Below, one piece after another: positions 4,533 through 56,101 of a stretch of 64,000 nucleotides of DNA (the stretch's first letter is position 1; every line of letters starts with the position of its first letter). The stretch is taken from assembly GCA_963757295.1 (NCBI GenBank), contig CAVWQZ010000006.1:142390-206389 (forward strand), given 5' to 3'. Source of the stretch: an uncultured Actinomycetota bacterium. Lineage in GTDB: Bacteria; Actinomycetota; Actinomycetes; JACCUZ01. A program made the translations under genes and the position numbers. The notes beneath the pieces are model-generated. The model was not told the origin of the DNA. It saw only the letters and a list, made by a program, of their open reading frames with translations, and ran no database searches.

Positions 4533-4548
4533 CGAGAGGGGCAGCGAC

Positions 4549-4992: not shown

Positions 4993-6379
4993 TCAGCTGC
5001 GCCGCAGCAGAGCCAGGTACATCGCGTCGGTGCCGTGCCGGTGCGGCCACAGCTGCACGTCCGGGCCGTCCCCCAGGTCGGGCATCGCCGGGAGCGACGC
5101 CCGCGCGTCGAGCTGCTCCACCGGCACCGGCCCGCGGAGCGCGTCACCCACGACGGCCCGGGTCTCGGCCAGGTGCGGCGAGCAGGTGACGTAGGCGACC
5201 ACGCCACCCGGGCGGACGGCCTCCAGCGCCGACGCGAGCAGCGATCGCTGCAGCGCGGACGAGCGGAGCGACGTCCTCCGCCGTACGACGCCACCGTGCC
5301 TCCGGCCGCCGCCGCAGCGCCCCCAACCCGGTGCAGGGAGCATCGACGAGCACCCGGTCGAACGCGCCCGCCTGCCAGGCCGGGGCCCGGCCGTCCGCCA
5401 CCACGACATCGGCGTCGTCGCCGACAGCGCGCCGCGTCAGCCGAGCCCGATGCGGCGCCAGCTCTGCTGCGACGAGACGTCCGCCCCGCTCCCGCGCCAG
5501 CGCGCCGAGCAACGCCGCCTTGCCGCCCGGCCCGGCGCACAGGTCGAGCCACCGCTGGTCCGAACCCTCGATGGGAGCCGCCGCCAACGCCAGCGCGACC
5601 AGCTGGCTGCCCTCGTCCTGCACACCGGCCCGGCCCTCCCGCACCGCCGGGATGGCACCGGGCTCGCCGCCAGGCAGCGTCGCCGCGTAGGGCGACCACC
5701 GGCCGGGCACCGCCCCGGCGGCGATCAGCTCGGCCACCTCGGCGCGACCCGGTCGAGCGACCAGGCTCACCGCCGGCGCCACGTTGTCGGCGGCGAGCAG
5801 CGCGGCCGTCTCCTCGAGCGAGCCGCCCAGCGCGTCCCGGACGGCGGAGACCACCCAGCGCGGGTGCGAGTGCGCGACGGCGAGATGCCCGACCGGGTCC
5901 ACGTCGTACGCCGGGGCGAGCTCGTTCACCCACGACGCCAGGTCGCTGGCACCCACCCGGCGCAGCACCGCGTTCACGAACTTCGCCCGGCCGTCGCCGA
6001 GCACCGCGCGGGCCAGCTCCACCGTCGCCGACACCGCGGCGTGCGAGGGCACCCGCATCGCGAGCAGCTGGTGGGCGCCCAGCCGGAGGACGTCGCGCAC
6101 CGGCTCGTCCACCTGGTCGAGCGGCCGGTCCACGCACGCGGCCAGCACCACGTCGTACGTGCCCTGCCCGCGCAACGTGCCGTAGGTGAGCTCGGTGGCG
6201 AACGCCGCGTCGCGTCCCTCGATGCCGCGGCTGGTGAGCAGCTCGGGCAGCACCAGGTTGGCGTAGGCGTCGCGCTCGGCCACGGCGCGCAGCACGTCGA
6301 ACGCTGCCCGCCGCGCGGCGTCCGGCTGCGGGCGGCGGTAGGGCTTGGCCGCCCGGCGCGGGCCGCCCTGGGTCGACAT
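4993..6379 (-). CDS. rsmB: 16S rRNA (cytosine967-C5)-methyltransferase RsmB/Sun; frame shift near 5290
   Basis: NusB-like N-domain RAAFDVLRAVAERDAYANLVLPELL, MTase core DLCAGPGGKAALLGALA...DAPCTGLGALRRRPEARWRR. C-terminus LQRSLLASALEAVRPGGVVAYVTCSPHLAETRAVV in ORF 4993..5409. Confidence 0.75.
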
Positions 6380-35902: not shown

Positions 35903-36697
35903 ATCAGCCCAGCGCGTGATCGAGGTAAAGGTCTGCCAAAGCACCGCCCCACAGGATCGCCACGAAGGCGCCTGCGAGCATGAACGGGCCGAACGGGACC
36001 TTGGACTTCCGGCCGGCCTTGCCGACGGCCATCAGCGCCGATCCCGACGACGCCTCCGAACAGGAATCCGAGGAAGGTCCCCGTCACGACCTCCGCCCAC
36101 CCCAGCCAGCCCAGGTAGGCCCCGAGCACGCCGGCGAGCTTGACGTCCCCGAAGCCCATGCCGGCCGGGTAGATCCATGCCAGGGCGAAGTAGAAGGCGT
36201 ACAGGGCGGCCATTCCCAGCCCGGCGCGCAGGTAGCTGTCCCAGTCGTGCCCGAACACGGCTGCCGCCCCGAGCAGCACGGCTGCGACGACGTACGACGG
36301 CAGGACGATCGCGTTCGGGAGCCGCTTGACGTCCAGGTCGATGAGAGCGAGCGCCACGCCGATCGCCCCGAGGTAGAGGAATGCAGGCAGCTCAGGCTCG
36401 AGCCCGATCCGGGCCGCCAGCACCACGAAGACGGCAGCGGTGCCGAGCTCGACGAGCGGGTAGCGGGCCGAGATGGGGGCCTTGCAGTCCCGGCACCGGC
36501 CGCGCAGCAGCAGCCAGCTCACCACCGGCACGTTGTCGCGCGGGCGCACGGCCGCGCCGCACGCCGGGCAGTGGGACGGCGGGTGCGCGATGGACTCGCC
36601 ACGCGGCACCCGCCACACCACGACGTTCAGGAACGAGCCGATGATCAGCCCGAGGACGCCGACAAGGATCAGGAACAGAGACCACCGGCAGACCTTA
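35903..36697 (-). CDS. pilD: Prepilin peptidase (A24 family); frame shift near 35990, N-terminal start obscured (CT-dinucleotide-repeat indel near 36690)
   Basis: LFLILVGVLGLIIGSFLNVVVWRVPRGESIAHPPSHCPACGAAVRPRDNVPVVSWLLLRGRCRDCKAPISARYPLVEL...GMGFGDVKLAGVLGAYLGW. C-terminus KSKVPFGPFMLAGAFVAILWG recovered in the +1 frame. Confidence 0.8.
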
Positions 36698-36713
36698 GGG
36701 CAGAGAGGGCGGA

Positions 36714-38051
36714 TCAGCGGTCGTCCTCGCGGAAGTTCTTCACGTTGATGTTCAGCAGCGGGCCGGGCATGTTCTCCAGGTAGCAGTCGTCAATCTTGAT
36801 GTCGGCCGTGCCGGTGAGGTCGAACTGGTTGGCGGCGTAGATCGTGCCGATCAGCTGTGCAGCCACCGTTGGACTTCGTGACGTTGCCGTTCGGTGCCGG
36901 CCCGAGCGCGAAGATGGCAGCTTGCAGGATGGTGTTGGCGTTCAGCCGGATGTTGCCCTTCTTGACGATCACGACGACGCCGCCCTTGGGGGCGCAGTTC
37001 GCATCGTCCGCGTCCACGAAGACCGAGGACGGCCGGCCGTAGAGGGTCTGGGAGATGTCGTTGAGGTCGACCATCCCGCCGACAGCAGCGCCCTGGAGGT
37101 CGTAGAAGAGGACCGGGTTCTTCAGCGGCGAGGTGCCGTTGGAGATGGGCGCGGGGATCGCGGTCGTGTTGGTGAAGTAGTTGTTCTGTTCGATGGCGAT
37201 GCCCTTGAGCAGGTCGAGCTGGGCGTCGGAAAGGCCCGAGGTGTTGTAGTCGTACATCTGGCCCATCTGCGTGGCGCTGGAGATCAGCGACGTGGACGGG
37301 TAGACCGGTGGGCCGGCGAACATGTTGAAGCACGGGGCCGGGACCGGGTTCGCCCCGTTGATGTCCTGGTCATAGGGGTACGCCGTGTTGCACCGCGTTG
37401 AGCCGTCTGTGGATGTTGTTGCTGGTGCCGGGGCAGTTGTTGCTCTCGGTGATGTTCGACGACGAGTGAGCTGCGGCCGGGATGCCGTAGACCATGTCGA
37501 TGTTTCCGCCGAAGTTGATCTTGTCCCGGTCGTTGATGCAACCGGTCGAGAACAGCGACAGGTAGTGGATACCGCTGCTGCCGCCGGCGGTCAGGTTGTT
37601 GGAGAACAGCCCGATCGGGTACTCGAAGGGCTTGACCTCGACGTCGACCTCGATGGTCCGCGAACCCGGGCCGGGCTCGGAGATGCCCACCGAGTGGATG
37701 CGGTAGACGCCGGGACGCCGCTTCGGCTGGTCCATCGGCTGCAGGGTCTCGAACCACACGTTGTAGCGCTCGTTCGGTGCCAGCGAGACGACCTTCGACG
37801 GCATGGGCGTCACCGTCCTCCGCCGACTCGCCCCACGGGTTCGCGGCGCCGCAGTTGGGAGAGCACTTGATCTTCAGGACGCCTTCCGTGCGGATGTAGG
37901 CGACGGCCTGGGCGATCCCGCCCTCGGAGACGGACAGCGCCGAGGCCGACTGCCGGTCGCTGGTGCTGCTGGTCAGGTTGCTCGACGTCACGCCGATCGC
38001 GGCCACCGCGAACGCGGTGAGCAGCGCCGCCATCAGCAGCACCGTGATCAT
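36714..38051 (-). CDS. PilX_N-type pilus assembly / minor-pilin-associated protein, tandem copy A; at least 3 frame shifts
   Basis: MITVLLMAALLTAFAVAAIGVTSSNLTSSTSDRQSASALSVSEGGIAQAVAYI (hydrophobic N-terminus plus S..E..A..AAEAG-like PilX_N pattern). Downstream parts PSKVVSLAPNERYNVWFETLQP..., CFNMFAGPPVYPSTSLISSATQMGQMYDYNTSGLSDAQLDLLKGIAIEQNNYF... lie in other frames. Confidence 0.55.
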
Positions 38052-38177
38052 GCGCGGCTCCAGCCTCGCGGTCTTCGCGGGGGCGGCGAAGGAGACTGGC
38101 GAGTGATCTCATGCTGCGTTCCTCACATCGAGTGGACGAGAGACCCACCGGGCAGACCCTAGGGCAGAGAGAGCCGA

Positions 38178-39511
38178 TCAGCGGTCGTCCTCGCGGAAGT
38201 TCTTCACGTTGATGTTCAGCAGCGGGCCGGGCATGTTCTCCAGGTAGCAGTCGTCGATCTTGATGTCGGCCGTGCCGGTGAGGTCGAACTGGTTGGCGGC
38301 GTAGATCGTGCCGATCAGCTGCGAACCACCGTTGGACTTCGTGACGTTGCCGTTCGGTGCCGGCCCGAGCGCGAAGATGGCAGCTTGCAGGATCGTGTTG
38401 GCGTTCAGCCGCACGTTGCCCTTCTTGACGATCACGACGACGCCGCCCTTCGGGCGCGCAGTTCGCATCGTCCGCGTCCACGAAGACCGAGGACGGCCGG
38501 CCGTAGAGGGTCTGGGAGATGTCGTTGAGGTCGACCATCCCACCGACAGAAGCGCCCTGGAGGTCGTAGAAGAGGACCGGGTTCTTCAGCGGCGAGGTGC
38601 CGTTGGAGATGGGCGCGGGGATCGCGGTCGTGTTGGTGAAGTAGTTGTTCTGCTCGATGGCGATGCCCTTGAGCAGGTCGAGTTGGGCGTCTGAGAGGCC
38701 CGAGGTGTTGTAGTCGTACATCTGGCCCATCTGCGTGGCGCTGGAGATCAGGACGTCGACGGGTAGACCGGTGGGCCGGCGAACATGTTGAAGCACGGCG
38801 CCGGGACCGGGTTCGCCCCGTTGATGTCCTGGTCATAGGGGTACGTCGTGTTGCACCGCTGCGTCGCACTGTGGATGTTGCTGCTGGTCCCGGGGCAGTT
38901 GTTGCTCTCGGTGATGTTCGCCGACGAGTGCGCGCGGCCGGGATGCCGTAGACCATGTCGATGTTGCCACCGAAGTCGATCTTGTCCCGGTCGTTGATGC
39001 AGCCGGTCGAGAACACCGACAGGTAGTGGATGCCGCTGCTGCCGCCGGCGGTCAGGTTGTTGGAGAACAGCCCGATCGGGTACTCGAAGGGCTTGACCTC
39101 GACGTCGACCTCGATGGTCCGCGAACCCGGACCGGGCTCGGAGATGCCCACCGAGTGGATGCGGTAGACGCCGGGGCGCCGCTTCGGCTGGTCCATCGGC
39201 TGCAGGGTCTCGAACCACACGTTGTAGCGCTCGTTCGGGGCCAGTGAGACGACCTTCGACGGCTGGGCGTCACCGTCCTCTGCCGACTCGCCCCACGGGT
39301 TCGCAGCGCCGCAGTTGGGAGAGCACTTGATCTTCAGGACGCCTTCCGTGCGGATGTAGGCGATGGCCTGGGCGATCCCGCCCTCAGAGACAGACAGCGC
39401 CGAGGCCGACTGCCGGTCGCTCGTGCTGCTGGTCAGGTTGCTCGAGGTCACGCCGATCGCGGCCACCGCGAAAGCGGTGAGCAGCGCGGCCATCAGCAGC
39501 ACCGTGATCAT
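38178..39511 (-). CDS. PilX_N-type protein, tandem copy B (~95% identical to copy A); at least 2 frame shifts
   Basis: Same N-terminus, ...KPFEYPIGLFSNNLTAGGSSGIHYLSVFSTGCINDRDKIDFGGNIDMVYGIPAA..., C-terminus CAPKGGVVVIVKKGNVRLNANTILQAAIFALGP...DIKIDDCYLENMPGPLLNINVKNFREDDR*. Confidence 0.55.
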
Positions 39512-39569
39512 GGCGGCACCGGCCTCGCGGTCTTCGCGGGGCTGGCGAAGGAGACTGGCGAGTGCATCT

Positions 39570-40283
39570 CATGCTGCGTTCCTCACATCGATTTGGACGC
39601 GGTAGTCCTGCCGCTTGGCGCCTTGCAGGACGGTGAGCCTGATGACGAGGTTGTCGATGTGCGACCAGTTCGGGGCCGGTCAGCGTGCCGGAGTTGTCCC
39701 CCACGAATGCGGAGGCGGGTGCGCAGCCAGTCGGCTGGAACTTGTCCAGCTCGGTCCACAGCGTTCCGTTGAGGCCGTCACAGTCGTACTGCCAGAGGCT
39801 GCTTCGGAACTCGATCGCGAAGGACGTCACGTGCGCGGCGAGGACGGGTGAGGTCACCACGGTGCCCGAGATGTCGGCGGCGGTGAGGAGCAGCTGGCTG
39901 CCGTTCCAGCTGTAGGTCAGCTCCTCGGGGTCCGCGGCGGTGGGCTCGATCACTCCATCGCCGTCGAAGTCGGCGGTGAAGGTGAACGAGCGGGCAGCTG
40001 TCGGGTTGCTGGCGAGGACGGGTGTGCCGCCTGCGCCCTGCACGTCGCTGAGCGCAACTGCCTGGCGAAGCTCACGTGAGATGCGGTTCAGCGCGACCCG
40101 GGCCTCTTCGTTCAGGTCGCTGGTGAGCCGGGTGTTGTCCGTTGCGGTGCGCGCAGTGAGGACGGTGCTCATGATGATGGCGCCGAGCACCGAGAAGATC
40201 GTCAGGGCGACGAGCATCTCGACCAGGGTGTAGCCGCGACTGTCGCCGGCACGGATGACCTGGAGGCGCGTTCGGAGGGCGTT
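39570..40283 (-). CDS. Minor pilin, PilW/PulJ(GspJ)-like, with prepilin N-terminal methylation motif; frame shift near 39640
   Basis: MNALRTRLQVIRAGDSRGYTLVEMLVALTIFSVLGAIIMSTVL... End recovered as ...HIDNLVIRLTVLQGAKRQDYRVQIDVRNAA*. ATGA overlap with the upstream gene. Confidence 0.6.
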
Positions 40284-41445
40284 CATCGCAGGTCCTCCGC
40301 GGTGCAGGTGAGCACGCCGAGCTCGACGCCCAGCGCGGAAGACGGGTCCGCGACTCCGCGGGTCGGCTTGGTGGTCACCGAGAACACCGCGGGGAGGCTG
40401 CCGCGAGCCAGCGTGCCGGTCGACTCGACGACCGGCGACCCGGTGGACATCCCGGACCAGCTCGCGATCCAGAAGTCGAGCGTGCGGCCCTCGTCCACAC
40501 CGATCGTGAAGGGGTTGTCGCTGATGCACCTGGATGGTCGACGGGTCGGGCAGGCCGACCGAGCTGGGCGTCAGGATCCGCTGGACGTAGGAGCCGTTGC
40601 TGTACCACGAGACGGTGACCTGCCAGTCGGCCGTGACCGTCCCGACACCGGCGGTGTTGTTGCAGTCGACGGACGCACGGTCCAGGCGCACCCGGACCAA
40701 GCCGTCCGACGCGAACGAGGTCGGCAGGATCCGCAGCCGTCGCGTCTCCGCGTATGCGTAGGCGCGGACGGAGTTCGGGTTCTTGGTGGCCGTGAGGTAG
40801 CCCGAGCCCACGGCGGTCACGTCACCCGCCGCCCCGTCGGTGAAGAACACCATCGGGCGGCTCGTGTTCAGCATCAGGGCGCTGTCCTGCTCGCCGAGGA
40901 TGGCGTTGTTGTACGACACGCCGCCCTCGTCGCCGACGTCACTGCGCAGCAGACGTCCTTCGGCCTTCGACGTGCTCAGGGAGACGATGGGCACGCCCGC
41001 GGAGACCTTGGCCTGGACGTTCCCGACCACCGACGAGTTGCCGAAGCAGACCGGGTAGCAGGACGAGGGGTCGAGCCGCTTGGTTCCCGCCGTGGCGGTG
41101 GCCGGGCTGTCGTCTGCGGGGGCGGACGCGCGACACGGACGCGCCTTCCACGGAGTTGCCGGACAGGTAGCTCGCCTGAGCCCCGACGGTGGTGTGGGCG
41201 GCACTCGCTGCGGTCGAGAGGGCGCCGTTGGCGTTGAACATGCCCGCCTGCAGCTGCACGACCTGACCGCTCGAGAGGGACGACGCGACCTTCAGCGCCG
41301 TCGCTCCGGCGGCCGAGACGACCTGCCGCTCTGCGGGGGCGACGTTCGCGATCTCGGTGCGCAGGATCGACGACTTGGCGCTGCCAGGTGCGTCCCACGA
41401 GGTCGTCACCGTCACGCCGAGCAGGCTCGAGGCGGGCATGTCCAT
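40280..41445 (-). CDS. Large (~390-560 aa) Ser/Thr/Gly/Val-rich non-pilin protein inside the minor-pilin operon (PilY1/PilC-tip-adhesin functional analogue?); at least 2 frame shifts
   Basis: MDMPASSLLGVTVTTSWDAPGSAKSSILRTEIANV..., then other-frame continuation PADDSPATATAGTKRLDPSSCYPVCFGNSSVVGNVQAKVSAG...RLDRASVDCNNTAGVGTVTADWQVTVSWYSNGSYVQRILTPSSVGLPDPSTIQV, C-terminus ...FTIGVDEGRTLDFWIASWSGMSTGSPVVESTGTLARGSLPAVFSVTTKPTRGVADPSSALGVELGVLTCTAEDLR*. No class III or obvious Sec signal peptide seen. Confidence 0.4.
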
Positions 41446-41451
41446 GGTTGC

Positions 41452-41932
41452 TCAGCGCGGGCGTTGTAGGTGGCCCGCGGCATGACGACGACCCGTTCGG
41501 ACGTCAGGAACTGGACCTCGATCATGCTGACGGAACTTTGCGAAGCCGGCGATCGGGTTGATCGTGCAGCGGTAGGTGGCGCTCGCGGCGATGTAGGCGC
41601 GGGCCGTGCACGGGTCGTTGGCCTCGAGCGCGCCTGCGGCCTGCAGGTCGCGGAAGTAGACGTCGAGGATGTCGCGGTACTGGCCGTTGTCGAACGCGAC
41701 GTAGTAGGGCAGGTTGCGCATCGACTCGACCCGCTCGACCGCGAGCTGCTTGGCCTGGGTGCTCAGCTTGGCGATGGTCGCCAGCCGGGTGGCCGAGATG
41801 AGCATCGGGATCAGCGCAGCAGCGATCACGCCGAAGATCATCAACGCGGTGATGACCTCCGCGAGGGTGAAGCCCTCGTCGGAGGCCGTGGCGGCGCCGG
41901 AGCCGGGACAGGAAGCTAGTCGGTCGAGACAC
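41452..41932 (-). CDS. Minor pilin, PilV-like (prepilin N-terminus); start region frame-shifted
   Basis: ...ASDEGFTLAEVITALMIFGVIAAALIPMLISATRLATIAKLSTQAKQLAVERVESMRNLPYYVAFDNGQYRDILDVYFRDLQAAGALEANDPCTARAYIAASATYRCTINPIAGFAKF. Confidence 0.55.
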
Positions 41933-42393
41933 GGGCGGTCAGTCCTTCCACCTGTACGACGATGTCGGCCGCGGCCAGCGCGGGAACGGTCGCGGTTCCC
42001 GGCGAGGCGGTTCCCCTCGGGGTGAAGATGACGTGGGCGGCGTCGGTCCCGTCGGACTGGGTGAACGACGCGGCGATGGTCACGCCAGTCGAGTCGGTCT
42101 CGGCCGGACCGCGCACGATCGTGCTCGTGCACGTGCCCTTGCGCATGGAGTAGGTGGTCGCACGTGTCGAACGTCACGCAGTAGGACGTGGCCTCGGTGA
42201 GCGCTCGCTGCTGGGCCTGGCGCAGGAAGGACACCAGCTGCTGGGCGGAGCCGCTCTGCTCGCGGGCGCGCGTCCAGCTCACCGACCCGCCGGCCACGAT
42301 CCCGAGGGTGATGCCCATGATGGCCATCGCCACCAGGACCTCGATCAGCGTGAAGCCACGCTGGTCGGAACCGGCTCGCACCTGCTTGAACAT
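41916..42393 (-). CDS. Minor pilin, FimT/GspH-like (prepilin N-terminus); frame shift near 42150
   Basis: MFKQVRAGSDQRGFTLIEVLVAMAIMGITLGIVAGGSVSWTRAREQSGSAQQLVSFLRQAQQRALTEATSYCVTFDTCD..., C-part GTCTSTIVRGPAETDSTGVTIAASFTQSDGTDAAHVIFTPRGTASPGTATVPALAAADIVVQVEGLTARVSTD*. SD GGAG 8 nt before the ATG. Confidence 0.55.
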
Positions 42394-42507
42394 GGACGCT
42401 CCTGCATCAGAGGCTCTCTGGCGGTGGATATCGGCAGCGCGACAGGCCAAGTTGAGCGTCGCCCCCAACTGGTCTGCGCTCATCTGCGGTCGTGCGTACC
42501 GGCCCGA

Positions 42508-42943
42508 TCAGCAGGGGCCCGGCGCGGGCCGGCCCTCCAGGCTGTCCATGTGGTAGTCGGCCGTCCCGATCGCCGTTGAGCTTGATGTGGTCGGCCTCGA
42601 GGCAGTAGCGGGTCGAGGTGGTGATGCCCGCGACCGGCAGCGACACCTCGACGTTCCCGCTCGCGTCACCCGACGCGTGGAAGGCGTACGGCGGGGTGAC
42701 ACCCGGCTGGATCGCACCCACCGGGAGATAGGTGCCGTGATCGTCGAAGAAGTTCTCCATGACCACCGCTGCGCTGCGGAGGTCCGAGACAGCGGCCGCG
42801 CGCCAGGCCTTCTCGCGCTGGTGCAGGAAGCTCGGGATGGCGATGCCGGCCAGGACGCCGATGATGATGACAACCACGAGCAGCTCGATCAGCGTGAAGC
42901 CGTCTTCACGCCATCGTTCGCTCATGAGTTGGTAACGCTTCAT
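42508..42943 (-). CDS. pilA3: Type IV (major-type) pilin paralog 3; C-terminal frame ambiguity near 42580
   Basis: MKRYQLMSERWREDGFTLIELLVVVIIIGVLAGIAIPSFLHQREKAWRAAAVSDLRSAAVVMENFFDDHGTY... Alternative-frame end ...YCLEADHIKL..TAIGTADYHMDSLEGRPAPGPC* is homologous to the pilA1 end AAVDYHLDITIGRPTDGRLLI*. Confidence 0.65.
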
Positions 42944-43005
42944 CCCAACGTGTCGGGCTATCGGCGCAGGTCATCAAGCGGCCAATCGGATGAAGGCCGG
43001 GCGCA

Positions 43006-43040
43006 GAGGGGGGCGGCACCGAGTCGGTGCCGCCCCCCTC
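43006..43040 (-). terminator. Near-perfect 16-17-bp GC-rich inverted repeat between pilA2 and pilA3 (candidate intrinsic terminator or attenuator; no U-tract)
   Basis: GAGGGGGGCGGCACCGA-G-TCGGTGCCGCCCCCCTC, read directly from the sequence. Confidence 0.45.
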
Positions 43041-43056
43041 ACAAGCAAGCCCTAGA

Positions 43057-43461
43057 TCAGGGCAGGCGCCCGTCGTCGGGCGACCGATCGTGATGTCCAG
43101 GTGGTAGTCGACCGCGGCCGGCAGCTTGAGGTGGTTCGCGTTCAGGCAGTAGCCGGTGGTGGTCTGCGGTGGCGATCGTCAGGGTGACGTCGGAGGTGCC
43201 GGCGTCGTTACCGGACGACTTGAACAGCGCCGGAGTGGCACCGGCGTAGGTGCCGTTGTCGTCGAAGTACTCCTCCATCTTGGTCGCTGCGTTGCGCAGG
43301 TCGGAGATGGCGGCCTTCTTCCAGGCCTTCTCACGCTGGTTGAGGAACGTGGGGATGGCGATGGCGGCGAGAATGCCGATGATGATGATGACCACGAGGA
43401 GCTCGATCAGCGTGAATCCGCTGTCGCCTTCCTCGCGGGCCTTGCGGATGCGAGCGAGCAT
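43057..43461 (-). CDS. pilA2: Type IV major pilin, tandem copy 2 (identical to copy 1 for the first ~100 codons, then a 31-codon out-of-frame segment bounded by a +1 and a -1 indel)
   Basis: MLARIRKAREEGDSGFTLIELLVVIIIIGILAAIAIPTFLNQREKAWKKAAISDLRNAATKMEEYFDDNGTYAGATPALFKSSGNDAGTSDVTLTIAT, then ADHHRLLPEREPP...SPD, then DGRLP*. SD AAAGGACGGG before the ATG. Confidence 0.7.
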   Translation of the reverse strand: MLARIRKAREEGDSGFTLIELLVVIIIIGILAAIAIPTFLNQREKAWKKAAISDLRNAATKMEEYFDDNGTYAGATPALFKSSGNDAGTSDVTLTIATADHHRLLPEREPPQAAGRGRLPPGHHDRSPDDGRLP

Positions 43462-44500
43462 GTGCCCGTCCTTTCAGGACCGAACCGATGAGCCGCGCCG
43501 CCGGTCCCTCGCGGCACCCTTGTGGGGTGCCGGCCGAGGCAGCTGGGCTGACCACCCGTGGTGGCTCCCTGGCTTTGCGACCCCGTCTCGCGACGGGTGT
43601 GCCGTGTCTGGCCGGTGCAGCTCGTTGACATCAGAGTGTTCGGCCCCCCGCGGGGCCCGCTTGAGCGTCTGTCGGACCGACTTGGCGGCGCCACCCGGGC
43701 GGGCTAAAGCCAGAACGGCGGCCCAGCGGCCAGATGGCCGCCGGACCGCCGCAGGTGCAGACGTCAGATCAGCAGGCGCCCGTCGGTCGGGCGACCGATC
43801 GTGATGTCCAGGTGGTAGTCCACCGCGGCCGGCAGCTTGAGGTGGTTCGCGTTCAGGCAGTAGCCGGTGGTGGTCTGGGTGGCGATCGTCAGGGTGACGT
43901 CGGAGGTGCCGGCGTCGTTACCGGACGACTTGAACAGCGCCGGAGTGGCACCGGCGTAGGTGCCGTTGTCGTCGAAGTACTCCTCCATCTTGGTCGCTGC
44001 GTTGCGCAGGTCGGAGATGGCGGCCTTCTTCCAGGCCTTCTCACGCTGGTTGAGGAACGTGGGGATGGCGATGGCGGCGAGAATGCCGATGATGATGATG
44101 ACCACGAGGAGCTCGATCAGCGTGAATCCGCTGTCGCCTTCCTCGCGGGCCTTGCGGATGCGAGCGAGCATGTGCCCGTCCTTTCAGGACCGAACCGATG
44201 AGCCGCGCCGCCGGTCCCTCGCGGCACCCTTGTGGGGTGCCGGCCGAGGCAGCTGGGCTGACCACACCGTGGTGGCTCCCTGGCTTTGCGACCCCGTCTC
44301 GCGACGGGTGTGCCGTGTCTGGCCGGTGCAGCTCGTTGACATCAGAGTGTTCGGCCCCCCGCGGGGCCCGCTTGAGCGTCTGCCGGACCAAATCTGGCGG
44401 CGCCACCCGAGCGGGCTAAGCCGAACGGCGGCCCAGCGGCCAGATGGCCGCCGGACCGCCGCAGGTGCAGACGTCGCCGGTTCGGAGGGCGCGCTACTCG
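43090..44500. repeat. Tandem direct duplication, unit ~710 bp x2 (pilin CDS plus ~300-bp 5' leader), leaders >95% identical
   Basis: 43462-43763 and 44172-44493 align almost base for base. Both contain hairpins GGCACCC-TTGTG-GGGTGCC and CCCGTC-TCGC-GACGGG. Confidence 0.85.
43764..44171 (-). CDS. pilA1: Type IV major pilin, tandem copy 1 (intact, 135 aa)
   Basis: Same N-terminus with G/FTLIELLVV prepilin cleavage/methylation motif. ...TLTIATQTTTGYCLNANHLKLPAAVDYHLDITIGRPTDGRLLI*. Confidence 0.8.
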   Translation of the reverse strand: MLARIRKAREEGDSGFTLIELLVVIIIIGILAAIAIPTFLNQREKAWKKAAISDLRNAATKMEEYFDDNGTYAGATPALFKSSGNDAGTSDVTLTIATQTTTGYCLNANHLKLPAAVDYHLDITIGRPTDGRLLI

Positions 44501-45717
44501 ACCAGGTCGAAGATCTTGAAGATGGGCATGTAGAGCGCGATGATCATCGACCCGACGATGCCACCGAGGAAGGCGATCATCAGCGGCTCGAGCAGCGCCG
44601 TCAGGCTCTCGGTGGTCGCCTCGACCTCGGCGTCGTAGAACTCCGCGATCTTGCCGAGCATCGTGTCGAGCGCGCCGGTGTCCTCACCGACGGAGAGCAT
44701 CTGGACCACCATCGGCGGGAACACCGAGTGGTTGGCCAGGGGCCCGGCGAGCGTCTCGCCTCGCCGTACGCTCTCCTGCACGTCCCGCGTGGCGTGCGCG
44801 AGCACGACGTTGCCGGTGGTGTCGGCGACGATGTCCAGCGCCTGCAGGATCGGGACGCCGGCCTTGAGCATGGTGCCCAGGTTGCGGCAGAACCGGGTCA
44901 GCGCGACCTTCTGGAACAGGCCACCGAAGACGGGGATCTTCAGCTTCAGCGGGTCGAGGAAGTTGCGCACCCCGTCCTTGTGCTTGACCCGCTTCCACAC
45001 GAACAGGAAGACGATGAAGCCGACGAGGCCCAGCGGCGCCAGGATCTTCATCTTGTCGCTGAGGAACACCAGCACCCGCGTCGGGGCGGGCAGGGTGGCG
45101 CCGAGCTCCTCGAACATCCCGGCGAAGACCGGCACGATGAAGAGCAGCATGCCGGTGACGGCGAGCACGGCCATGATCAGCACGACGACCGGGTAGGTCA
45201 TGGCGGACTTGATCTTGCTGCGCAGCTTGACCTCGGACTCGTAGTTCGCCGCGACCTGCAGCAGCACCGTGTCGAGGAAGCCGCCGACCTCGCCGGCCCG
45301 GGTGAGGTTGACCATCAGGGGCGGGAAGACGTTGGGGTGCTTGGCCATCGCGTTGGACAGCGCGAGACCGGTCTCCACGTCCTTGCCGACCTCGCCGAGG
45401 ACCCGGCGAAGCTCCTTGTTCTCCGTCTGCTCGGCCAGGATCGTCAGCGAGCGCAGCATCGAGAGCCCGGCGTTGATCATGGTCGCGAACTGCCGCGACA
45501 TGACCGCGAGGTCCTTGAGCTTCACCTTCTTGCCGAAGCCCGGGATGCTGATCTCCTTCTTCATCCCGGCCTTGCTCTCGTTGATGCTCACGGGCGCGTA
45601 GCCCATGCTCTTGAGCTTGGTGGCAACCGCAGCCTGGGACTCCGCCTCCAGCTTGCCGGAGACGATCTTGCCCGAGCGGTCCCGGACCGAGTACTCGTAT
45701 GTCAGCGTCGCAGCCAT
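44494..45717 (-). CDS. pilC: Type IV pilus inner-membrane platform protein PilC (two T2SS-F domains)
   Basis: MAATLTYEYSVRDRSGKIVSGKLEAESQAAVATKLKSMGYAPVSI..., two repeats of the GspF-type domain. Intact 407 aa. SD GAGG upstream. Confidence 0.9.
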   Translation of the reverse strand: MAATLTYEYSVRDRSGKIVSGKLEAESQAAVATKLKSMGYAPVSINESKAGMKKEISIPGFGKKVKLKDLAVMSRQFATMINAGLSMLRSLTILAEQTENKELRRVLGEVGKDVETGLALSNAMAKHPNVFPPLMVNLTRAGEVGGFLDTVLLQVAANYESEVKLRSKIKSAMTYPVVVLIMAVLAVTGMLLFIVPVFAGMFEELGATLPAPTRVLVFLSDKMKILAPLGLVGFIVFLFVWKRVKHKDGVRNFLDPLKLKIPVFGGLFQKVALTRFCRNLGTMLKAGVPILQALDIVADTTGNVVLAHATRDVQESVRRGETLAGPLANHSVFPPMVVQMLSVGEDTGALDTMLGKIAEFYDAEVEATTESLTALLEPLMIAFLGGIVGSMIIALYMPIFKIFDLVE

Positions 45718-45728
45718 TGCCTTGCCTC

Positions 45729-46993
45729 TCAGCCTCGGCCAGACAGCCGGTTGAAGTCCTCGACGTGGTGGCACTTCTCGAGACCGGTCTCGTAGGTGAT
45801 CTTGCCCTTCTTGACAAGGTCTGCGAGGTGCTGGTCCATGGTGTGCATTCCGTGCTTCGCCCCGGCCTGCATGGCCGAGTAGATCTGGTGGGTCTTGCCT
45901 TCCCGGATGAGGTTGCGGATGGCCGGCGTGGCCACCAGCACCTCGGTTGCGACCACGCGGCCCTGACCGTCAGCGGTCCGGGCGAGCGTCTGGCAGACGA
46001 CGCCCTGGAGGGCGCCGGCGAGCTGGACCCGCACCTGCTGCTGCTGGTGCGGCGGGAAGACGTCGATGACGCGGTCGATCGTCTGCGCCGCGTCCTGACG
46101 TGTGCAGCGTGGCGAAGACGAGGTGGCCGGTCTCGGCCGCGGTCAGGGCGACCGAGATCGTCTCGAGGTCACGCATCTCGCCGACCAGGATGATGTCGGG
46201 GTCCTGGCGCAGCACGTGCTTCAGCGCGTTCTGGAAGGACCAGGTGTCCTCCCCCACCTCGCGCTGGTTGACGATGCAGGACTGGTGACGGTGGAGGAAC
46301 TCGATCGGGTCCTCGACGGTCATGATGTGGTCTTTGCGCGTCCGGTTGGCGAGGTCGACGATCGAGGCCAGCGTCGTGGACTTGCCGGAGCCGGTAGGAC
46401 CGGTGACGAGGACGAAGCCACGCGGCAGGCTCGCGAAGTTCGCCACCGACGGCGGTACGCCGAGGTCCTCGAGCTTGCGGATCTCGAACGGGATGATGCG
46501 GAAGGCAGCGCCGACCGCGTCCCGCTGGCGGTACATGTTGACGCGGAACCGTGCGCGGCCAGGGACGCTGTAGGCGAAGTCGAGCTCGAGGTTCTCCTCG
46601 AACTTCTCCCGCTGCTTCTGGGTCAGCGCCGCGTACATCACGCGCTGGATGACCGGCGGCGTCAGGATCGGCTGGTCCTCCAGGGCCATCAGCTCGCCGT
46701 TGAGGCGCAGTGACGGCCGGGCACCGGAGGTGAGGTGCAGGTCGGACGCGCCGCGGCTGAGGACGGTCTCCAGCAGGTCGTTCAGGGAGATGTCCTCGTC
46801 CTCGAGCGGCGGCTTCGGTCGACCCGCGCTGGTAGGCGGACTCGACGGCCTCGGGCTCGGCCACGAGGACCGTCTGCTCGGGGACCGGTACGACGTCGGC
46901 GTGCCACTCGGTCGAGGCCACCGGCAGCGGTGCCAGCGGCTCGGCAGCGACCTGGGTCGGGAAGGTCGGGAGGAAGGCCTCAGCGGGCGGCAT
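45729..46993 (-). CDS. pilT: Twitching-motility retraction ATPase PilT with an apparent ~65-aa Pro/Ala/Glu-rich N-terminal extension; frame shifts near 46040 and near 46800; no start codon at the canonical PilT N-terminus
   Basis: ...[38 protein letters not shown]..., Walker [17 protein letters not shown], ...LVFATLHTS, then C-part (ORF 45729..46034) [20 protein letters not shown]...[23 protein letters not shown]. Candidate ATG at 46993 overlaps the upstream small-ORF stop. Confidence 0.75.
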
Positions 46994-47350
46994 GGCGGAC
47001 GGCACGGGCGGCGGCACGGCTCGGACGGCCGGCGGCCTCGGCGACCGGCTCGGCGAGGTACTCCGGCGCAGGCGCAGGCGCGGGAGCCTGGGCCGGCGGG
47101 GCGTCGAGGTACTCGGGCTGCGGCGGGGCGGCGGCCTCGAGCGACGGCGGCGGCGGTCGGGCGCCGGCTCGTTCACGTAGGAGTAGTTCCACCCTCCCCC
47201 GGCGACCGTCTGCTCCTCTTCGGGCGCGAGGCCAGGACCGGGCACGAACGTGCTCGGCTCTTCCGGCTGCGCCGGCTGGAATCCGGACGTCTCCACCTGC
47301 TGACCCCTTTCGACGTACCGTGCGGTCGCACGGCACCCGAGCAGACCTGG
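46980..47350 (-). other. Coding potential for a small (~105-125 aa) acidic Pro/Ala/Glu-rich low-complexity protein between pilB and pilT (frame-shifted; could alternatively be part of a longer PilT N-extension)
   Basis: [46 protein letters not shown]..., then other-frame [45 protein letters not shown]...*. SD AAAGGGG before GTG 47296. Confidence 0.3.
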
Positions 47351-47450
47351 CTGTCGAGCCAGTTCTCTCCTGCGTGGCATCGGTCGAGCAGTCGGCCTGC
47401 TTGAGCGTCGGGCCCGACCTTGCCAAGCCTTTAGACGACGACCCGCAGGA

Positions 47451-49098
47451 TTTCGTCCAGCGAGGTGATCCCGTCGAGCACCTTGGCGAGGCCGTCGTGA
47501 GCGCAGGGTGACCATGCCCTCTTCGCGGGCCTGCTCGGCGATGGCGGCCGCCGAGGCGTGCTCCACGGCCATCCGCTCGATGGTCTCGCTCACCGGCATC
47601 ACCTCGTGCAGCGCGAGCCGGCCCTTGTAGCCGGTCTTCGAGCACGCGGAGCAGCCGATCGGCCGGAAGAGCGTTGGGGACCGGCTCACCGTCCTGCAGC
47701 GGGAAGCGGGACTGGACCAGCAGCTCGCGGGAGGGGGTGAACTCCTCCTTGCACTTGGCGCAGAGCCGGCGGGCGAGGCGCTGGGCCAGCACGCAGTCCA
47801 GGGCGGACCCGACCAGGAACGGCTCGATCCCCATCTCGATGAGCCGGGTGATCGAGGACGGCGCGTCGTTGGTGTGCAGGGTGGAGAGGACCAGGTGGCC
47901 CGTCAGCGCCGCTTCCACGGCGATCTGAGCCGTCTCGTGGTCGCGGATCTCACCGATCAGCACGATGTCGGGGTCCGAACGCAGGATCGAGCGCAGGGCC
48001 GAGGCGAACGTCAGTCCCGCCTTGATGTTCGTCTGGACCTGGTTGATGCCCGGCCAGGCGATACTCCACCGGGTCCTCGACCGTGATGACGTTGACCTCG
48101 GGCCGGCTGACGATGTTCAGGGTCGCGTACAACGTCGTGGACTTGCCGGAACCGGTCGGACCGGTGACCAGGATCATCCCGTAGGGCTTGATGAAGCTCT
48201 GGGAGTAGACCTCGTAGTTGTGCTCGGAGAAGCCGAGGTCGGCGAGGTCGAGCCGGGCGGTCGAGTTGTCCAGGATTCGCATGACGACCTTCTCGCCCCA
48301 CACGGTCGGCAGCGTCGCGACCCGCAGGTCGATCTTGCGGCCGTGCGCATTGACCGAGAGGCGGCCGTCCTGAGGGATCCGGCGCTCCGCGATGTTGATG
48401 TCGGCCATGATCTTCAGTCGGCTGATGACGCCCTGCTGGATCGCCTTCGGTGAGCGCATGATCTCGTGCAGTACGCCGTCGATGCGGAACCGCACGCGCA
48501 GGTCGGTCTCGGTCGGCTCCAGGTGGATGTCCGAGGCTCGGTCCTGGATCGCCTGCGTGATCAACAGGTTGACGTACTTGACGATCGGCGCGTCCTCGAC
48601 GATCTCCTTGACCTTGGAGAGGTCGTCCTCCTCCTCCTGCGCGTCCAGCGCCTGGGTGAGGTCGTCGAGGTCGGAGTCGGCGCGGTAGTAGCGGTCGATG
48701 GCCGCGGCGACGTCCGCCCGGGTCGCGACGACCGGCTTGACGTCCATGCCGGTCAGCGACCGGATGTCGTCGACGGCGAACACGTTGGCCGGGTCGGCCA
48801 TCGCGACGAGCAGCTTGCCGTCCTCGAAGCCGATCGGGATGGCCGCGTGGCGGCGGCACACCGGCCCGGGCACGCGCCCGATGGCTGAGCCGTCGACCGG
48901 GAAGTCGCTCAGGTCGACGAAGCGCAGGCCGATCTGGGTGGCCAGCGCGGCCACCAGCTGGGACTCGGTGAGCACGCCCTGCTCGATCAGCACGCGCCCG
49001 AGGGCCCGGCCGACCCGTTCTTGTTCCTCGTAGGCGATGGCGAGCTGGTCAGAGCTGACCAGTCCACCCTCCAGGAGGATGTCGCCGAGCTGTTTCAC
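47451..49098 (-). CDS. pilB: Type IV pilus assembly/extension ATPase PilB (GspE family with N-terminal GSPII_E_N domain); at least 3 frame shifts (near 48055, 47680, 47500)
   Basis: GTG start after [41 protein letters not shown]..., Walker [64 protein letters not shown], zinc motif CAKCKEEF...[12 protein letters not shown], end [27 protein letters not shown]. Confidence 0.85.
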
Positions 49099-50977
49099 GC
49101 ACCCTCTCCTGCCGTCGAAGCCACGTTGGCGCCTCTGTTCCATCGGGTGGATGCGGCCGATCCTGAAGACGCATCGGTGCTGCTCTGATCGAGGCGGCGC
49201 AGCGCGTCCTCGACCGCTGCGCGCGCGCCGTCCGGCCCGGTCGTTGCCAGGACAGCCCGCAGGCGCAGCAGGATCGCCCTGGCCTCCGCCGCTCGGCCGG
49301 CCGTCTCCAGCACGCCCGCCTGACCGAGCAGCAGCATGGGCAGGCGCTGGCTGGAGGCGTCGGCCACAGCAGCTGCCAGGGCCACGCCCGCGGCCGGGCG
49401 CCCGGTCACGACCAGGGCCTTCGCACGATCCATCTGCAGCCCGGGATTGTCGGTGGCGGCCCGCTCGGTGCACTCCAGGGCGGTGCGCAGGTCCGCCTGG
49501 TCGGTGCCGCGCAGCATCGACCGGCAGACCGAGGCCGCCGGCAGCCAGGAGAGGTGCCCGGAGGCGGGGACGACACTCGTCACCGGCTGCGCCCACAGCG
49601 GGACCTCGGCGGCGGAGGCTCGCAGGCCGGATGCGCGCACCGCGGCCGGCACCGACACCAGCAGGAGCGCGACGGCGACGACAGCGACAGCACGTGGCCA
49701 CACGCCGGCCGGCGCATCGGGGCGTTGCCGGGCGGGCACGACCAGCCCTGCCAGGATCGCGAGGAACGCGAGCAACGACGGGTAGATCCAGTCGAAGTCC
49801 ACCCCGGAGTGCAGGATCAGGCCGAGCATGGCCAGCGGGACGCCGATGGCCACGACTTCGTCGTCGCGGCGGCGGGAACGGGACATGAGAGCCCACAGCC
49901 CGGCGAGCAGTGGGACACCCGTCGCGAGCGCGAGGGCCGCCACCAGGGGTCCACCGCCGTCGGAGAAGGCCTGCAGATAGCCGTTGTGCACATGGGTCGC
50001 GGGCGCCTACCCCGACGGGCAGGCGCACCGGAGGCGCCGGCGAACGAGTCGAACCCCGCACCGGTGAGCGGGTGCTCGGTGCCCAGCTCAGTGGCAACCT
50101 TCCAGAACTCGAGCCGCGCTCGGCCGTTGCCCTCCACAGACTGCGCCGGCGCCGCGGGCCCTGCAAGGTGGCGAACGGGCCGCCGGACTCCTCCATCAGC
50201 AGCGGGCTGGCGAGGACAGGTGCGCCAGACCCAGAGCGACGGCGACCAGGGCGAGGGCGGCTACCCGCCCTCTGCTGTCGATGAAGGACAGCACGATCAC
50301 GACGAGCCAGACGACCAGGAAGGTGCCCAGCCCGGCGCGACTGCCGGCGAACAGCAGCCCCGCGAGGCACCAGGGCGCGGTCACCCAGCCGACGATGCGC
50401 AGAGCGCCGTGAGCGCGGACAGCCAGCACTCCGGCGAGGACCCCTGCCCCGACCATGAACGCAGAGAACTGGTTGTGCCAGTAGAAGGTTCCCGAGCATC
50501 AGGCGGTAGACGCTGCCGCCGCCCCACCACGGCACGTAGGACTGGTAGAACTGCTCGAGCCCGACCACGGCGAGGACACCGAGAAGGGCGTGCCGGCGCG
50601 AGCGCGTGGTGGCCCAGGACCCGGACCACGACAGCGAGCAGGCCGGCGTAGGCCAGGGTCGCGACCTCGTCCAGGCCGTCCCAGTGGGTCGGGGCCGTCA
50701 GGCAGACGACGATCGCCGCCAGCCCGGGCGTCACGGCGAGCAGAAGCTGCCAGGCGGGAAGCACCCGCCACGGCCGCGTCGCGAACAGCGCCGGCGCCAG
50801 GGCGACGAGGGCCAGCCCGAGGACCCACGGGTCGCGCCCACCCGAGCCGTGCGTGAGCGGAACGGCCCACGCGAGAAGGGCGAGGACGACGGTCGCGGTG
50901 GCGACGTGCCCCGCCGTCGTGGTCCGGGCGCGGTCGCCGTCGAGCCGCACGGGCGGCCGCGACTGAAGCAGCGTCAT
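49095..50977 (-). CDS. Polytopic membrane protein with Wzy_C / O-antigen-ligase-type domain and C-terminal TPR-like region (PglL/TfpO-like O-oligosaccharyltransferase candidate); at least 4 frame shifts
   Basis: Multiple TM segments (WVLGLALVALAPALFATRPW..., FLVVWLVVIVLSFIDSRG...). Signature H-N-G-Y-L-Q-A-F-S-D-G-G-G-P-L-V. TPR-like tail LRTALECTERAATDNPGLQMDRAKALVVTGRPAAGVALAAAVADAS. Stop at 49095 abuts the pilB GTG at 49098. Confidence 0.55.
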
Positions 50978-53674: not shown

Positions 53675-54501
53675 TCAGGGTGTGCGCAGCGCGCGTTCTC
53701 CCGCGGCCCGCAGCACGGGCACCAGTGCCGGTACGTCGACCGGCCGCCCGGTCATCAGCGCGACCTGCAGAACGGCCTGGTGAACCAGCAGGTCAAGGCC
53801 ACCGAGCACGTCAGCCCCGCGCTGCCGCCAGGCCGTCGCCAGCGGGGTGGGCCACGGGTCGTAGACGACGTCGAAGAGCATCCCGGCCAGCCGCGGCGGC
53901 AGGGTCTCGGCCAGCGCGTCCGTGCTGCCGGCCGGCGTCGTCGACACCACCAGGTCGGCGCCGGCGAGCGCATCCAGGCTGGTGGACGACCACTCCTCGA
54001 CGTGCGGCCGCACCCCGAGGCGCGCCGCCGCCTGCTCCAGGCCGGCTGCCCGGCCGCGGTCGCGCACCAGGACGGTCGGCGTGGACTCCCCCAGCTGCTG
54101 CAGGGCGGCCAGGGCCGCGGCGGCGGTCGCGCCCGCACCGAGGACGCAGGCCCAGCCCACCCCGTCGACCCCGCGCTCGCGCAGGGCGGCGACCATGCCG
54201 GGCACGTCGGTGTTCTCGCCCTGCCGGCCGTCGGGGCCGAGCAGGACCGTGTTGGCGCCGCCGACCGCACGGACCAGCTCGCTGGACCGGTCGAGCAGCG
54301 TCAGCACGGCCGCCTTCAGCGGCATCGTCAACGAGAGTCCGGCCCACGAGCCGTCCAGCCCGTCGAGGAAGCCCGCCAACCCGGCCGCGTCCACGTCGTA
54401 CGCGTCATAGGTCCACTCCGCGAGGCCGAGCTCGTCGTAGGCGGCCTGGTGGAGGACGGGGGAAAGCGAGTGGCGGACCGGCGAGCCGAGCACGGCTGCG
54501 C
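53675..54501 (-). CDS. aroE: Shikimate dehydrogenase
   Basis: GTG start overlapping the mltG stop (GTGA). [21 protein letters not shown]...SLTMPLK...VLGAGATAAAALAAL. Confidence 0.8.
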
Positions 54502-55619
54502 GGCACCTCACTGGTTGGACTTGAGCTCCTGCTTGAACCGCAGGAACTCCTGGTAGCTGCTGGTGAACTTCGTCTCGCCGCTCTCCGGGTCGACGGTGAC
54601 GAAGTACAGCCAGTCGCCGTCCGGCGGGTTGACCGCGGCCTCGAGCGCACGTCTCGCCGGGAGAGTTGATGGGCCCGGGCGGCAGGCCGGTGTTCTTGTA
54701 GGTGTTGTACGGCGAGTCGGTGCCGAGGTCCTCGAGGGTGACCAGCTTCTTGTCGGCCTTGAGCGCGTAGTTGACGGTGGAGTCGAACTGCAGCGGCATC
54801 CCCTGCGTCGAGCCGGTTGTAGACGACCCGGGCGACCTTGCCGAAGTCCTCGGCGTGGCGCGCCTCGGCCTCGACCAGGCTGGCGATGATGACGAGCTCG
54901 TACGGCGAGCGCTGGGTGCGCTCCACCCCGGTCGTCTCGGCGGCGTCGTGCGTACCTCGCCGAACAGCGCCTTGAGCACGTCCGGCGCGGCGGCGTTCGG
55001 CGGAACGTCGTAGGTCGCCGGGAACAGGAAGCCCTCGGCGTTCTTCTTCGCGTAGGCCGGCAGGCCCAGCGAGCGGGCGTCCTTGAGCGCCTTCTTGTAG
55101 TCGGCGAGCGGGAGCTCGGTGCTCTTGGCCAGCCGCTTGAGCGTCTCGTCGAGCCGGAGCCCTTCGGGCAGGACGACCTTGGCCTGGACCCGCGACTTGG
55201 GGTCGAGCAGCAGGGCCAGCGCCTCGCCGGCCTGCATCTTGCGCTTGAGCTGCGTAGAAGCCGGGCTGAAGACTCGAGGACCTGGGCTCCGCGTTGGCCG
55301 CCGCGAGGAACGCGTCGACGCTGGCGATCACGTCTTCCTTCTTCAGGGTCCGCCCGACCTCGGCGACGGTCTGCCCGGGGGTGACCTCGATCACGACCTC
55401 GCCCTCTCCGGGGCCGGGATAGTCGTCGGCGCTGGTGGAGAGGGCGTCGGTGAGCTTGGACCCGACGCCCTTGACCAGGGCATATCCCCCGGCCACGACC
55501 GCCAGGATCACCAGCAGGGAGATCACGACGGCGAGACCGCCCTTGCGGTCGCGCTTCTTCTTGCGCCGGCGCCGGCGCACCGGTCGATCCTCATCGGCCC
55601 AGACCGAGAGATCCGTCAT
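54498..55619 (-). CDS. mltG: Endolytic murein transglycosylase MltG (YceG family); at least 2 frame shifts
   Basis: N-terminal [21 protein letters not shown], ...[21 protein letters not shown]..., FLFPATYDV, ...[11 protein letters not shown], end ...[32 protein letters not shown]. Confidence 0.75.
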
Positions 55620-56101
55620 TCCTCCACCTTCGTGTCGTCCCCGGGTGTCGCGGCCTGCACCTGCCGTCCCGGCGCGATCCCGGTGGCTCGCTCCTCGTCG
55701 AGGGCGGTCTGCAAGATGATGACAGCAGCGGCCTGGTCGACAACGCTACGCCCCCGGCGGCTGTCCATCCCACTCGCCCGGAGGTCGCGCTGGGCTCCCA
55801 CGGTGGACAGCCGCTCGTCGACCAGCCGCACCGGCGTGGACCCGAGCGTGTCGGCCAGCCGCTGGGCGAAGGCGACGGCATCGTCCGCGGCGCGGCCCTC
55901 CCGGCCGGCCAGCGTGCGGGGCAGGCCGACCACCACCTCGACCGCCTCGCGCTCGGCGGCCAGGCGGGCCAGCTCGGCCAGGTCGCCGCGGCCCCGGCGC
56001 ACGGTCGCGACCGGGGTCGCGATCAGCCCCGCCGGGTCGCAGGACGCCACGCCGATCCGGACGGTGCCCACGTCGACCCCCAGCCGCACGCCCGCCCTCA
56101 T
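55616..56101 (-). CDS. ruvX: Putative pre-16S rRNA nuclease / Holliday-junction resolvase-like YqgF
   Basis: [36 protein letters not shown]...[26 protein letters not shown]. Confidence 0.85.

Follow-up and report, generated by a model that had tools for sequence, protein, structure and literature searches.

The major pilin gene in the 64,000-nt stretch of actinobacterial DNA analysed here, hereafter the window, has been duplicated in tandem together with its leader. This duplicated riboswitch-pilin cassette is a real feature, whereas the alternative C-terminus read from the assembled second copy is not. We place a probability of about 0.9 on the explanation as a whole, namely that the cassette duplication is genuine, that three indels within it are consensus errors and that there is no alternative C-terminus. 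The identification of the leader as a predicted c-di-GMP-I riboswitch is new in the present analysis.

Self-alignment of the window resolved two head-to-tail units of about 710 nt on the minus strand, 43766..44475 (cassette 1) and 43054..43765 (cassette 2), with 98.2% identity (5 mismatches and 8 gap characters). The earlier note had described such a duplication of pilin and leader, and two minus-strand ORFs are indeed present. In each unit, an imperfect GC hairpin and a more variable stretch of some 120 nt are joined by some 185 nt of near-invariant sequence and a pilin ORF, so that the cassettes have the same content: hairpin, promoter region, predicted c-di-GMP-I riboswitch, Shine-Dalgarno sequence (SD) and a copy of pilA. 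The pilC gene for the platform protein (44494..45774, minus strand) is intact and lies directly upstream of cassette 1. The imperfect GC hairpin that opens cassette 1 (44427..44460, minus strand), as judged by direct reading of the sequence and by its repeat family, is likely the pilC terminator, and its duplicate (43717..43750, minus strand) now lies 3' of pilA copy 1. A strong GC hairpin, GAGGGGGGCGGCACCGACTCGGTGCCGCCCCCCTC, follows copy 2 outside the repeat (43003..43044, minus strand); it is likely the pilA terminator and is kept in the related contigs L081 and L089.

Read literally, pilA copy 1 is an ORF of 135 aa (43764..44171, minus strand) that ends in ...GRPTDGRLLI, and copy 2 is an ORF of 134 aa (43057..43461, minus strand) that ends in ...DGRLP, both as had been reported from the sequence. 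The ORF translations are identical over the first 99 codons on the N-terminal side, close to the 100 or so claimed before, and alignment of both copies bears out the claim that the leaders are more than 95% identical. What did not survive from that earlier account is the polarity of one indel and the status of copy 1 as an intact gene, as detailed below. A diverged paralogue, pilA3 (42508..42943, minus strand), is located downstream of both copies and is itself frameshifted (+1 at about 42569). The Cys...Cys ending attributed to it exists (...GRPAPGPC), but it is readable only in a frame other than that of the assembled ORF; the gene is intact, with 144 aa, in L081 and L083.

We examined the reality of the duplication using L085 (ENA ERZ25039516 contig_25894, 80.8 kb), an independent long-read contig from a different sample that was reached by a protein search with the indel-corrected PilA leading to cluster member P0123. 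This contig aligned with window positions 48427..38145 as a single colinear HSP at 91% identity that runs through both pilA copies; cassette 1 is colinear with L085 3988..4698 and cassette 2 with L085 4699..5405. Its pilA genes (4294..4695 and 5001..5402) are 707 nt apart and both intact, and their 133-aa products are the same. In three short-read (k141) contigs assembled from other samples (L086, L087 and L088), the sequence likewise passes from the stop codon of a pilA gene to the riboswitch leader of the next unit, and the junction in L088, CTGCTGATCTGACGTCTGCACC, matches that of the window exactly. Since the same arrangement and junction are found in L085 and in L086-L088, the duplication is not the collapsed-repeat assembly artefact that had been considered for it; as far as sequence comparison can tell, it is real biology.

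It is extremely improbable that the tandem duplication itself was created during assembly, for example by setting the haplotypes that two strains have at one locus in tandem. The long contigs closest to the window, L083 (2.16 Mb, 95% identical) and L084, do carry a single pilA each, as such stacking would lead one to expect. The window also contains a second perfect head-to-tail duplication (36677..39599) that is absent from L083, L084 and L085, and the assembly might therefore be prone to such artefacts. However, the contig that shares both duplication and junction comes from another sample and is only 91% identical overall, the short-read contigs span the junction, and, in their 5' leaders, the downstream copies of the window and L085 agree in two substitutions and an insertion of 2 nt. 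The copy number of pilA varies within the species cluster and the duplication is not universal there. Tandem riboswitch-pilin units are found in L004, L020 and L042 as well, those of L004 and L020 being near-identical pilin pairs with one riboswitch per gene, and distant relatives have two to four pilins in tandem.

The differences between the two copies were traced by aligning them with L081, L082, L083, L084, L085, L088 and L089. At site A (43167, minus strand), copy 2 contains an extra base (plus-strand c, gene-sense G) after ...TLTIAT. This is the 1-nt insertion that had been noticed previously; the base is absent from copy 1, L081, L082, L083, L085 and L089, and no sequence in the alignment other than copy 2 of the window has it. 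A 1-nt deletion 31 codons later in copy 2 had been proposed to restore the frame, but the polarity is the reverse: site B (43785..43786, minus strand) is an extra base in copy 1, which reads gg where all others, that is copy 2, L081, L082, L084, L085 and L088, read g. As a consequence, the last 7 codons of copy 1 are out of frame and the conserved terminal Cys is lost, and copy 1 cannot serve as the intact reference it was taken to be. At site C (43059..43060, minus strand), copy 2 is one base short where the Pro codon meets the stop codon, with GCCTGCCC-TGA in place of GCCTGCCCGTGA in L081, L082, L084 and L089; relative to L085 the difference is +2. Each of these three changes is lacking in 3 to 5 of the independent sequences L081, L082, L084, L085, L088 and L089. 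No homopolymer, short tandem repeat or slippery site was found at any of the three indels (CACC[G]CAGACC, CCGAC[C]GACGG and TGCCC[-]TGA).

Removal of one base at 43785/6 turned copy 1 into a CDS of 133 aa (43769..44171) identical to P0123, a protein encoded on four other contigs whose end reads ...DITIGRPTTGAC or ...TIATQTTTGYCLNANHLKLPAAVDYHLDITIGRPTTGAC before the stop codon, with ...GRPTTGAC as the last residues. The same removal restores the conserved C-terminal Cys. Corrected copy 2 reads ...TIAT(Q/A)TTTGYC...GRPTTGACP, an ending like those of P0130 and L089, whereas the last 35 residues of its literal ORF, ADHHRLLPEREPP...DGRLP, come from the wrong frame. In the two top clusters, close homologues terminate in ...GRPT(T/L)GAC or ...GACP, and the C-termini of pilins are hypervariable in the related population. 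Type IV pilins normally have a second, C-terminal Cys. The literal ORF of copy 1 has one Cys and that of copy 2 has none; with the indels removed, both copies have Cys104 and the C-terminal Cys, as do all homologues. In terms of database representation, P0011, the shifted product of copy 2, is a cluster of one member among about 15 billion proteins, and P0126, the literal product of copy 1, is confined to a single contig, the 341,016-nt NCBI/ENA contig that also carries P0011.

The assignment of these genes as pilins is consistent with their sequence and context. In both copies the prepilin leader has Gly as its last residue, after which come F-T-L-I-E, with Glu at +5, and a hydrophobic N-terminal helix (MLARIRKAREEGDSG and then FTLIELLVVIIIIGILAAIAIP), and the homologue clusters of their products carry the Pfam domain N_methyl (PF07963). 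PilB (T2SSE and MshEN domains) and PilM were identified in the window, and PilT, PilC (T2SSF) and an A24 peptidase in the colinear L083 and L085. The cassettes are thus situated in a cluster of the type pilB-pilT-pilC...minor pilins-peptidase-pilMNO.

The indels in pilA are part of a wider pattern. Many phase switches were visible across the window in a GC3 phase plot; since its strand calls are too noisy for counting frameshifts, the counts given here are based on homology instead. Compared with L083, the neighbouring coding sequence of the window contains 22 frameshifting indels in 10,785 nt (2.0 per kb), 19 of them single-base insertions, most of which do not lengthen a homopolymer. A rate of this size predicts 1.65 indels for the pair of pilA copies, against 3 that were seen (P(>=3) = 0.23). 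The genes broken are pilB (three times), pilT (twice), pilA3, four genes of the minor-pilin operon and the prepilin peptidase gene, and they are intact in L083. Searches by tblastn with proteins of relatives showed that the broken genes are continued in a different frame; for pilB and pilT, the parts that flank a break each have 85-92% amino-acid identity. The essential gene alaS, which is outside the L083 contig, is split at about 57530, and its parts before and after the break have 60-70% amino-acid identity. A single ORF of the window joins MltG with AroE. Noise of this type affects other positions in L084, also a long-read contig, and L083 shows none; the 1.2-kb pilC of the window is free of indels.

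The frame in which this DNA evolved can be read from its substitutions. Where the window and L085 differ by substitution, the change is at a third codon position of the L085 frame on either side of every indel of the window: 32/34 in pilB, 19/19 in pilT after position 1660 (past the low-complexity N-terminus), 5/5 in pilA copy 1 and 6/6 in pilA copy 2, including 4/4 downstream of site A. Since this third-position pattern continues across the indels, the sequence evolved in the unshifted frame. The shifted allele at site A was also sought in a JGI metagenome scan for matches to either allele, which gave only an in-frame contig.

These results bear on the possibility that the frameshifts are real mutations in a decaying pilus locus, with pilA2, and also the tail of pilA1, pilA3, pilB and pilT, as young pseudogenes. 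The density of frameshifts over the pilus genes would fit such decay, as would the evolutionary fluidity implied by two close relatives that differ in copy number. It is nonetheless very unlikely, since indels of the same type split alaS and fuse mltG with aroE, L084 is noisy at other positions when L083 is clean, single-base insertions dominate and pilC is untouched. The breaks are also unaccompanied by stop-codon or nonsynonymous changes, as judged by the protein identity that flanks those in pilB and pilT and by substitutions confined to third positions.

Instead, the 'compensated frameshift' of copy 2 is almost certainly a consensus error of an indel-rich assembly, judging from these alignments. 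We propose that the changes at 43167 and 43059/60 in copy 2 and at 43785/6 in copy 1 are all errors of an insertion-prone, probably low-coverage long-read assembly rather than mutations and that, once corrected, both copies encode essentially the same pilin, with the end ...DYHLDITIGRPTTGAC(P) and the usual pair formed by Cys104 and the C-terminal Cys. The earlier suspicion that the frameshifted segment is an artefact was correct in this respect, but the artefact arises from consensus accuracy and not from the collapse of a repeat. Long-read-only metagenome assemblies such as Nanopore MAGs have indel errors at low coverage (PMC12313526, PMC9262707), and many of the relatives found here are long-read-only MAGs. 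The window resembles such pseudo-frameshifts in that single-base indels break conserved ORFs, here at about 2 per kb. It differs in that most of its indels are insertions outside homopolymers, whereas the usual Nanopore signature is homopolymer deletion. With about 2 indels in every kb of coding sequence, no call of a frameshift or pseudogene can be relied on in the window.

The earlier note had also raised a real mechanism that generates a pilin variant with a new C-terminus. The singleton status of P0011, the in-frame reading of the independent assemblies and the unshifted third-position pattern all speak against it. A selected compensated frameshift in copy 2 (+1/-1) that gives a different surface-exposed C-terminus, or a role of copy 2 as a silent donor cassette, is accordingly very improbable. 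Such a variant would draw on an assembled ORF that stays open up to the ancestral stop codon, on pilin C-termini that are already hypervariable in the population and on tandem paralogues as raw material for pilin variation. Yet its 'compensating' deletion is actually the insertion in copy 1, and the shifted peptide has neither a Cys nor a homologue and is rich in Arg, Pro and Gly, as expected for out-of-frame high-GC sequence. In addition, the substitutions downstream of site A keep the unshifted frame. Because the indel sites are neither homopolymers nor simple repeats, a slippage mechanism is lacking.

The pilE/pilS system of Neisseria and slipped-strand phase variation are similar to the present locus in having repeated pilin sequences near the expression locus and variation at the C-terminus. 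A pilS gene, however, is a promoterless, 5'-truncated silent copy, whereas copy 2 has the full promoter, riboswitch and N-terminus and is a complete expression cassette. Unlike in slipped-strand phase variation, the indel sites lack a repeat tract, and nowhere is the variant frame conserved. Should the base at 43167 be real, which we regard as highly unlikely, the downstream cassette would be either freshly inactivated or equipped with a Cys-less C-terminus, and it could be a gene-conversion donor or recipient beside its active twin. This would represent an early step towards silent-cassette pilin variation in an actinobacterium.

With the copies taken as two equivalent cassettes, we turn to what the leader contains. 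The two GC hairpins recognized there before are present in both leaders, and they correspond to the predicted aptamer of a c-di-GMP-I riboswitch (RF01051). The aptamer of cassette 1 (44245..44324, minus strand) scored 47.9 bits with RF01051 and 108 bits with our custom model R1, and that of cassette 2 (43535..43613, minus strand) scored 48.0 bits with RF01051. The gathering score of this family is 35, and both matches are full-length, covering model positions 1-87 of 87. The second hairpin has a variable terminal loop, and it is there that the aptamer of cassette 2 is 1 nt shorter than that of cassette 1. The two-hairpin architecture of RF01051 with its conserved GCAAAGCC junction was found, and the first hairpin, CCCGUC-GCGA-GACGGG with a GNRA tetraloop, is invariant in 13 sequences along with GUCGCAAAGCC. 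The c-di-GMP-I-GGC variant (RF03167) ranked first in E-value mode and was rejected: its gathering threshold is 59 and its scores were 48.7 and 48.2 bits, and GCAAAG, with the canonical A, stands in the window where the variant consensus is GCGAAG.

The association of this aptamer with pilins extends beyond the window. It was detected upstream of the major pilin in 11/11 related loci by Rfam scan. With the custom covariance model, it was found directly after pilC in 60/82 related actinobacterial loci and in two copies each in the window, L004, L020 and L042. The fold of the alignment showed compensatory changes in both aptamer hairpins and a conserved helix that brackets the aptamer. It also delineated a putative expression platform in cassette 1 (44172..44244, minus strand), for which the equivalent in cassette 2 is 43462..43534 (minus strand). 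This platform contains a conserved SD hairpin, GGUCCUGAAAGGAC, placed 8 nt ahead of the ATG, and another hairpin, which overlaps the 3' strand of P1 or competes with it. Because no U-rich intrinsic terminator was found after the aptamer, the control of pilA may be translational, possibly through the SD hairpin. By MFE, the leader folded no better than shuffled sequence (z = -1.4), and a consensus scan for sigma-70 promoters and intrinsic terminators returned 0 promoters and 1 weak terminator.

The two leaders of the window have diverged unevenly. There are zero substitutions, and one loop-base difference, over the approximately 184 nt that hold the riboswitch and the expression platform, compared with 10 substitutions and 2 indels in the 5' 120 nt or so. 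In the CDS, copies within a genome differ by 1-3 substitutions and pairs between genomes by 5-7. These figures, which amount to very few sites, are suggestive of gene conversion that keeps the riboswitch and the coding part of the copies alike. An ancestral duplication followed by such conversion is likewise suggestive only, because the signal in the 5' leader is mixed: three derived states there are common to the downstream copies of the window and of L085, but overall distances do not group these copies.

What the duplication may accomplish follows from its layout. Because each copy is preceded by its own predicted riboswitch, both cassettes would express the same major pilin under c-di-GMP control, and the duplication most plausibly doubles the c-di-GMP-gated pilin supply. 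Tandem pilin paralogues are common. Those of L004, L020, L042 and L052 (Longivirga aurantiaca) form rows of two to four genes after pilC and have identical N-terminal helices with variable C-terminal halves, although some pairs are nearly identical. The copies of the window and L085, in contrast, are essentially identical once corrected and have a riboswitch each, which would point to an effect on dosage rather than to diversification. The tandem duplication of the riboswitch-pilin unit in several lineages and the apparent homogenisation of its copies suggest selection on pilin dosage under the control of a second messenger.

It is an old observation that GEMM-I motifs occur near genes for pili, and to our knowledge the type IVa pili of actinobacteria are essentially unstudied. 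The predicted c-di-GMP-I riboswitch before the major pilin would provide a clear, testable link between c-di-GMP and pili in Actinobacteria. Within the literature library searched, we found no described class I aptamer before actinobacterial T4a pilins, an absence that does not prove novelty, and the only comparable link that the search returned is a class II riboswitch in Clostridioides difficile. The c-di-GMP class II riboswitch Cdi2_4 of that bacterium controls the major type IV pilin gene pilA1, as stated in a passage of PMC6916266 that cites Bordeleau et al. 2015. The two systems are alike in that a c-di-GMP riboswitch, here a predicted one, occupies the 5' leader of a major type IV pilin in a monoderm, an arrangement that would tie the making of pili to c-di-GMP. 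They differ in aptamer class, which is II in C. difficile and I (GEMM-I, RF01051) in the actinobacterial leader. Also unlike C. difficile, the present host is an actinobacterium, the pilin belongs to a T4a-like pilB-pilT-pilC-pilA cluster, and the whole riboswitch-gene unit has been duplicated.

The window's essential alanyl-tRNA synthetase gene, alaS (56214..~58500, minus strand), is split over two frames at ~57530. Matched to the catalytic-domain profile (552 positions), the open reading frame at 56214..57524 starts at position 453; the match to a relative's protein goes on in another frame, at 57532..57768. This split indicates that consensus error extends across the window. On the same strand, a single open reading frame (53675..55237) joins a YceG/MltG domain to shikimate dehydrogenase. 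Since relatives' proteins match 55760..54511 in three different frames, this fusion is probably an indel artefact.

The pilus genes are interrupted as well. Both pilT and pilB (45729..49100) are broken by inserted bases, pilT at ~46096 and ~46806 and pilB at ~48049, ~47672 and ~47498. Each of these breaks is due to one inserted base that is absent from the colinear relative contigs L083 and L085. The third pilin gene, pilA3 (42508..42943), is likewise frameshifted by one inserted base at ~42569; it is whole in L083 and in a further relative's contig, L081, where it encodes 144 aa with the C-terminus ...GRP(A/G)PGPC*.

Self-alignment of the window revealed a second tandem duplication, in the minor-pilin operon. 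Its units (36677..38138 and 38139..39599) are arranged perfectly head-to-tail; they are 1.46 kb long and 95.7% identical, with 50 mismatches and 13 gaps. The repeat unit is one whole gene of the operon, and its homologue in L083 (9886..11280) encodes a 464-aa protein for which no Pfam match was found. The gene is present as a single copy in each of L083, L084 and L085. The duplication could be a genuine recent event, or the assembler could have stacked the haplotypes of two strains.

A c-di-GMP-I riboswitch directly precedes the major type IV pilin gene, with two copies in the window (43535..43613 and 44245..44324). Of 82 related actinobacterial loci, 60 keep this arrangement, and it is accompanied by a conserved SD hairpin, GGUCCUGAAAGGAC. 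Where it occurs among loci L001-L084, the riboswitch is positioned ~100-300 nt after pilC. The loci that bear it are mostly from MAGs labelled Frankiales, Mycobacteriales, Motilibacteraceae or Sporichthyaceae, together with the isolate Longivirga aurantiaca.

Tandem pilins are also found on other contigs. On the short-read contig L086 (1..875), two unlike alleles stand in tandem, the upstream one ending in ...TIASATTTGYCLDANHLKLPLAVDYHLDITIGRPTTGAC* and the downstream one being P0123, a 133-aa PilA equal to the indel-corrected pilA copy 1. Hence in some strains the two cassettes have diverged and are not homogenised. The relatives L042 (11648..14063) and L052 (11580..13249) have tandem arrays of three or four major-pilin paralogues that share the same N-terminus but vary in the C-terminal half. 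Longivirga aurantiaca CGMCC 4.7317, the source of L052, is a cultured isolate and could be used for experiments.
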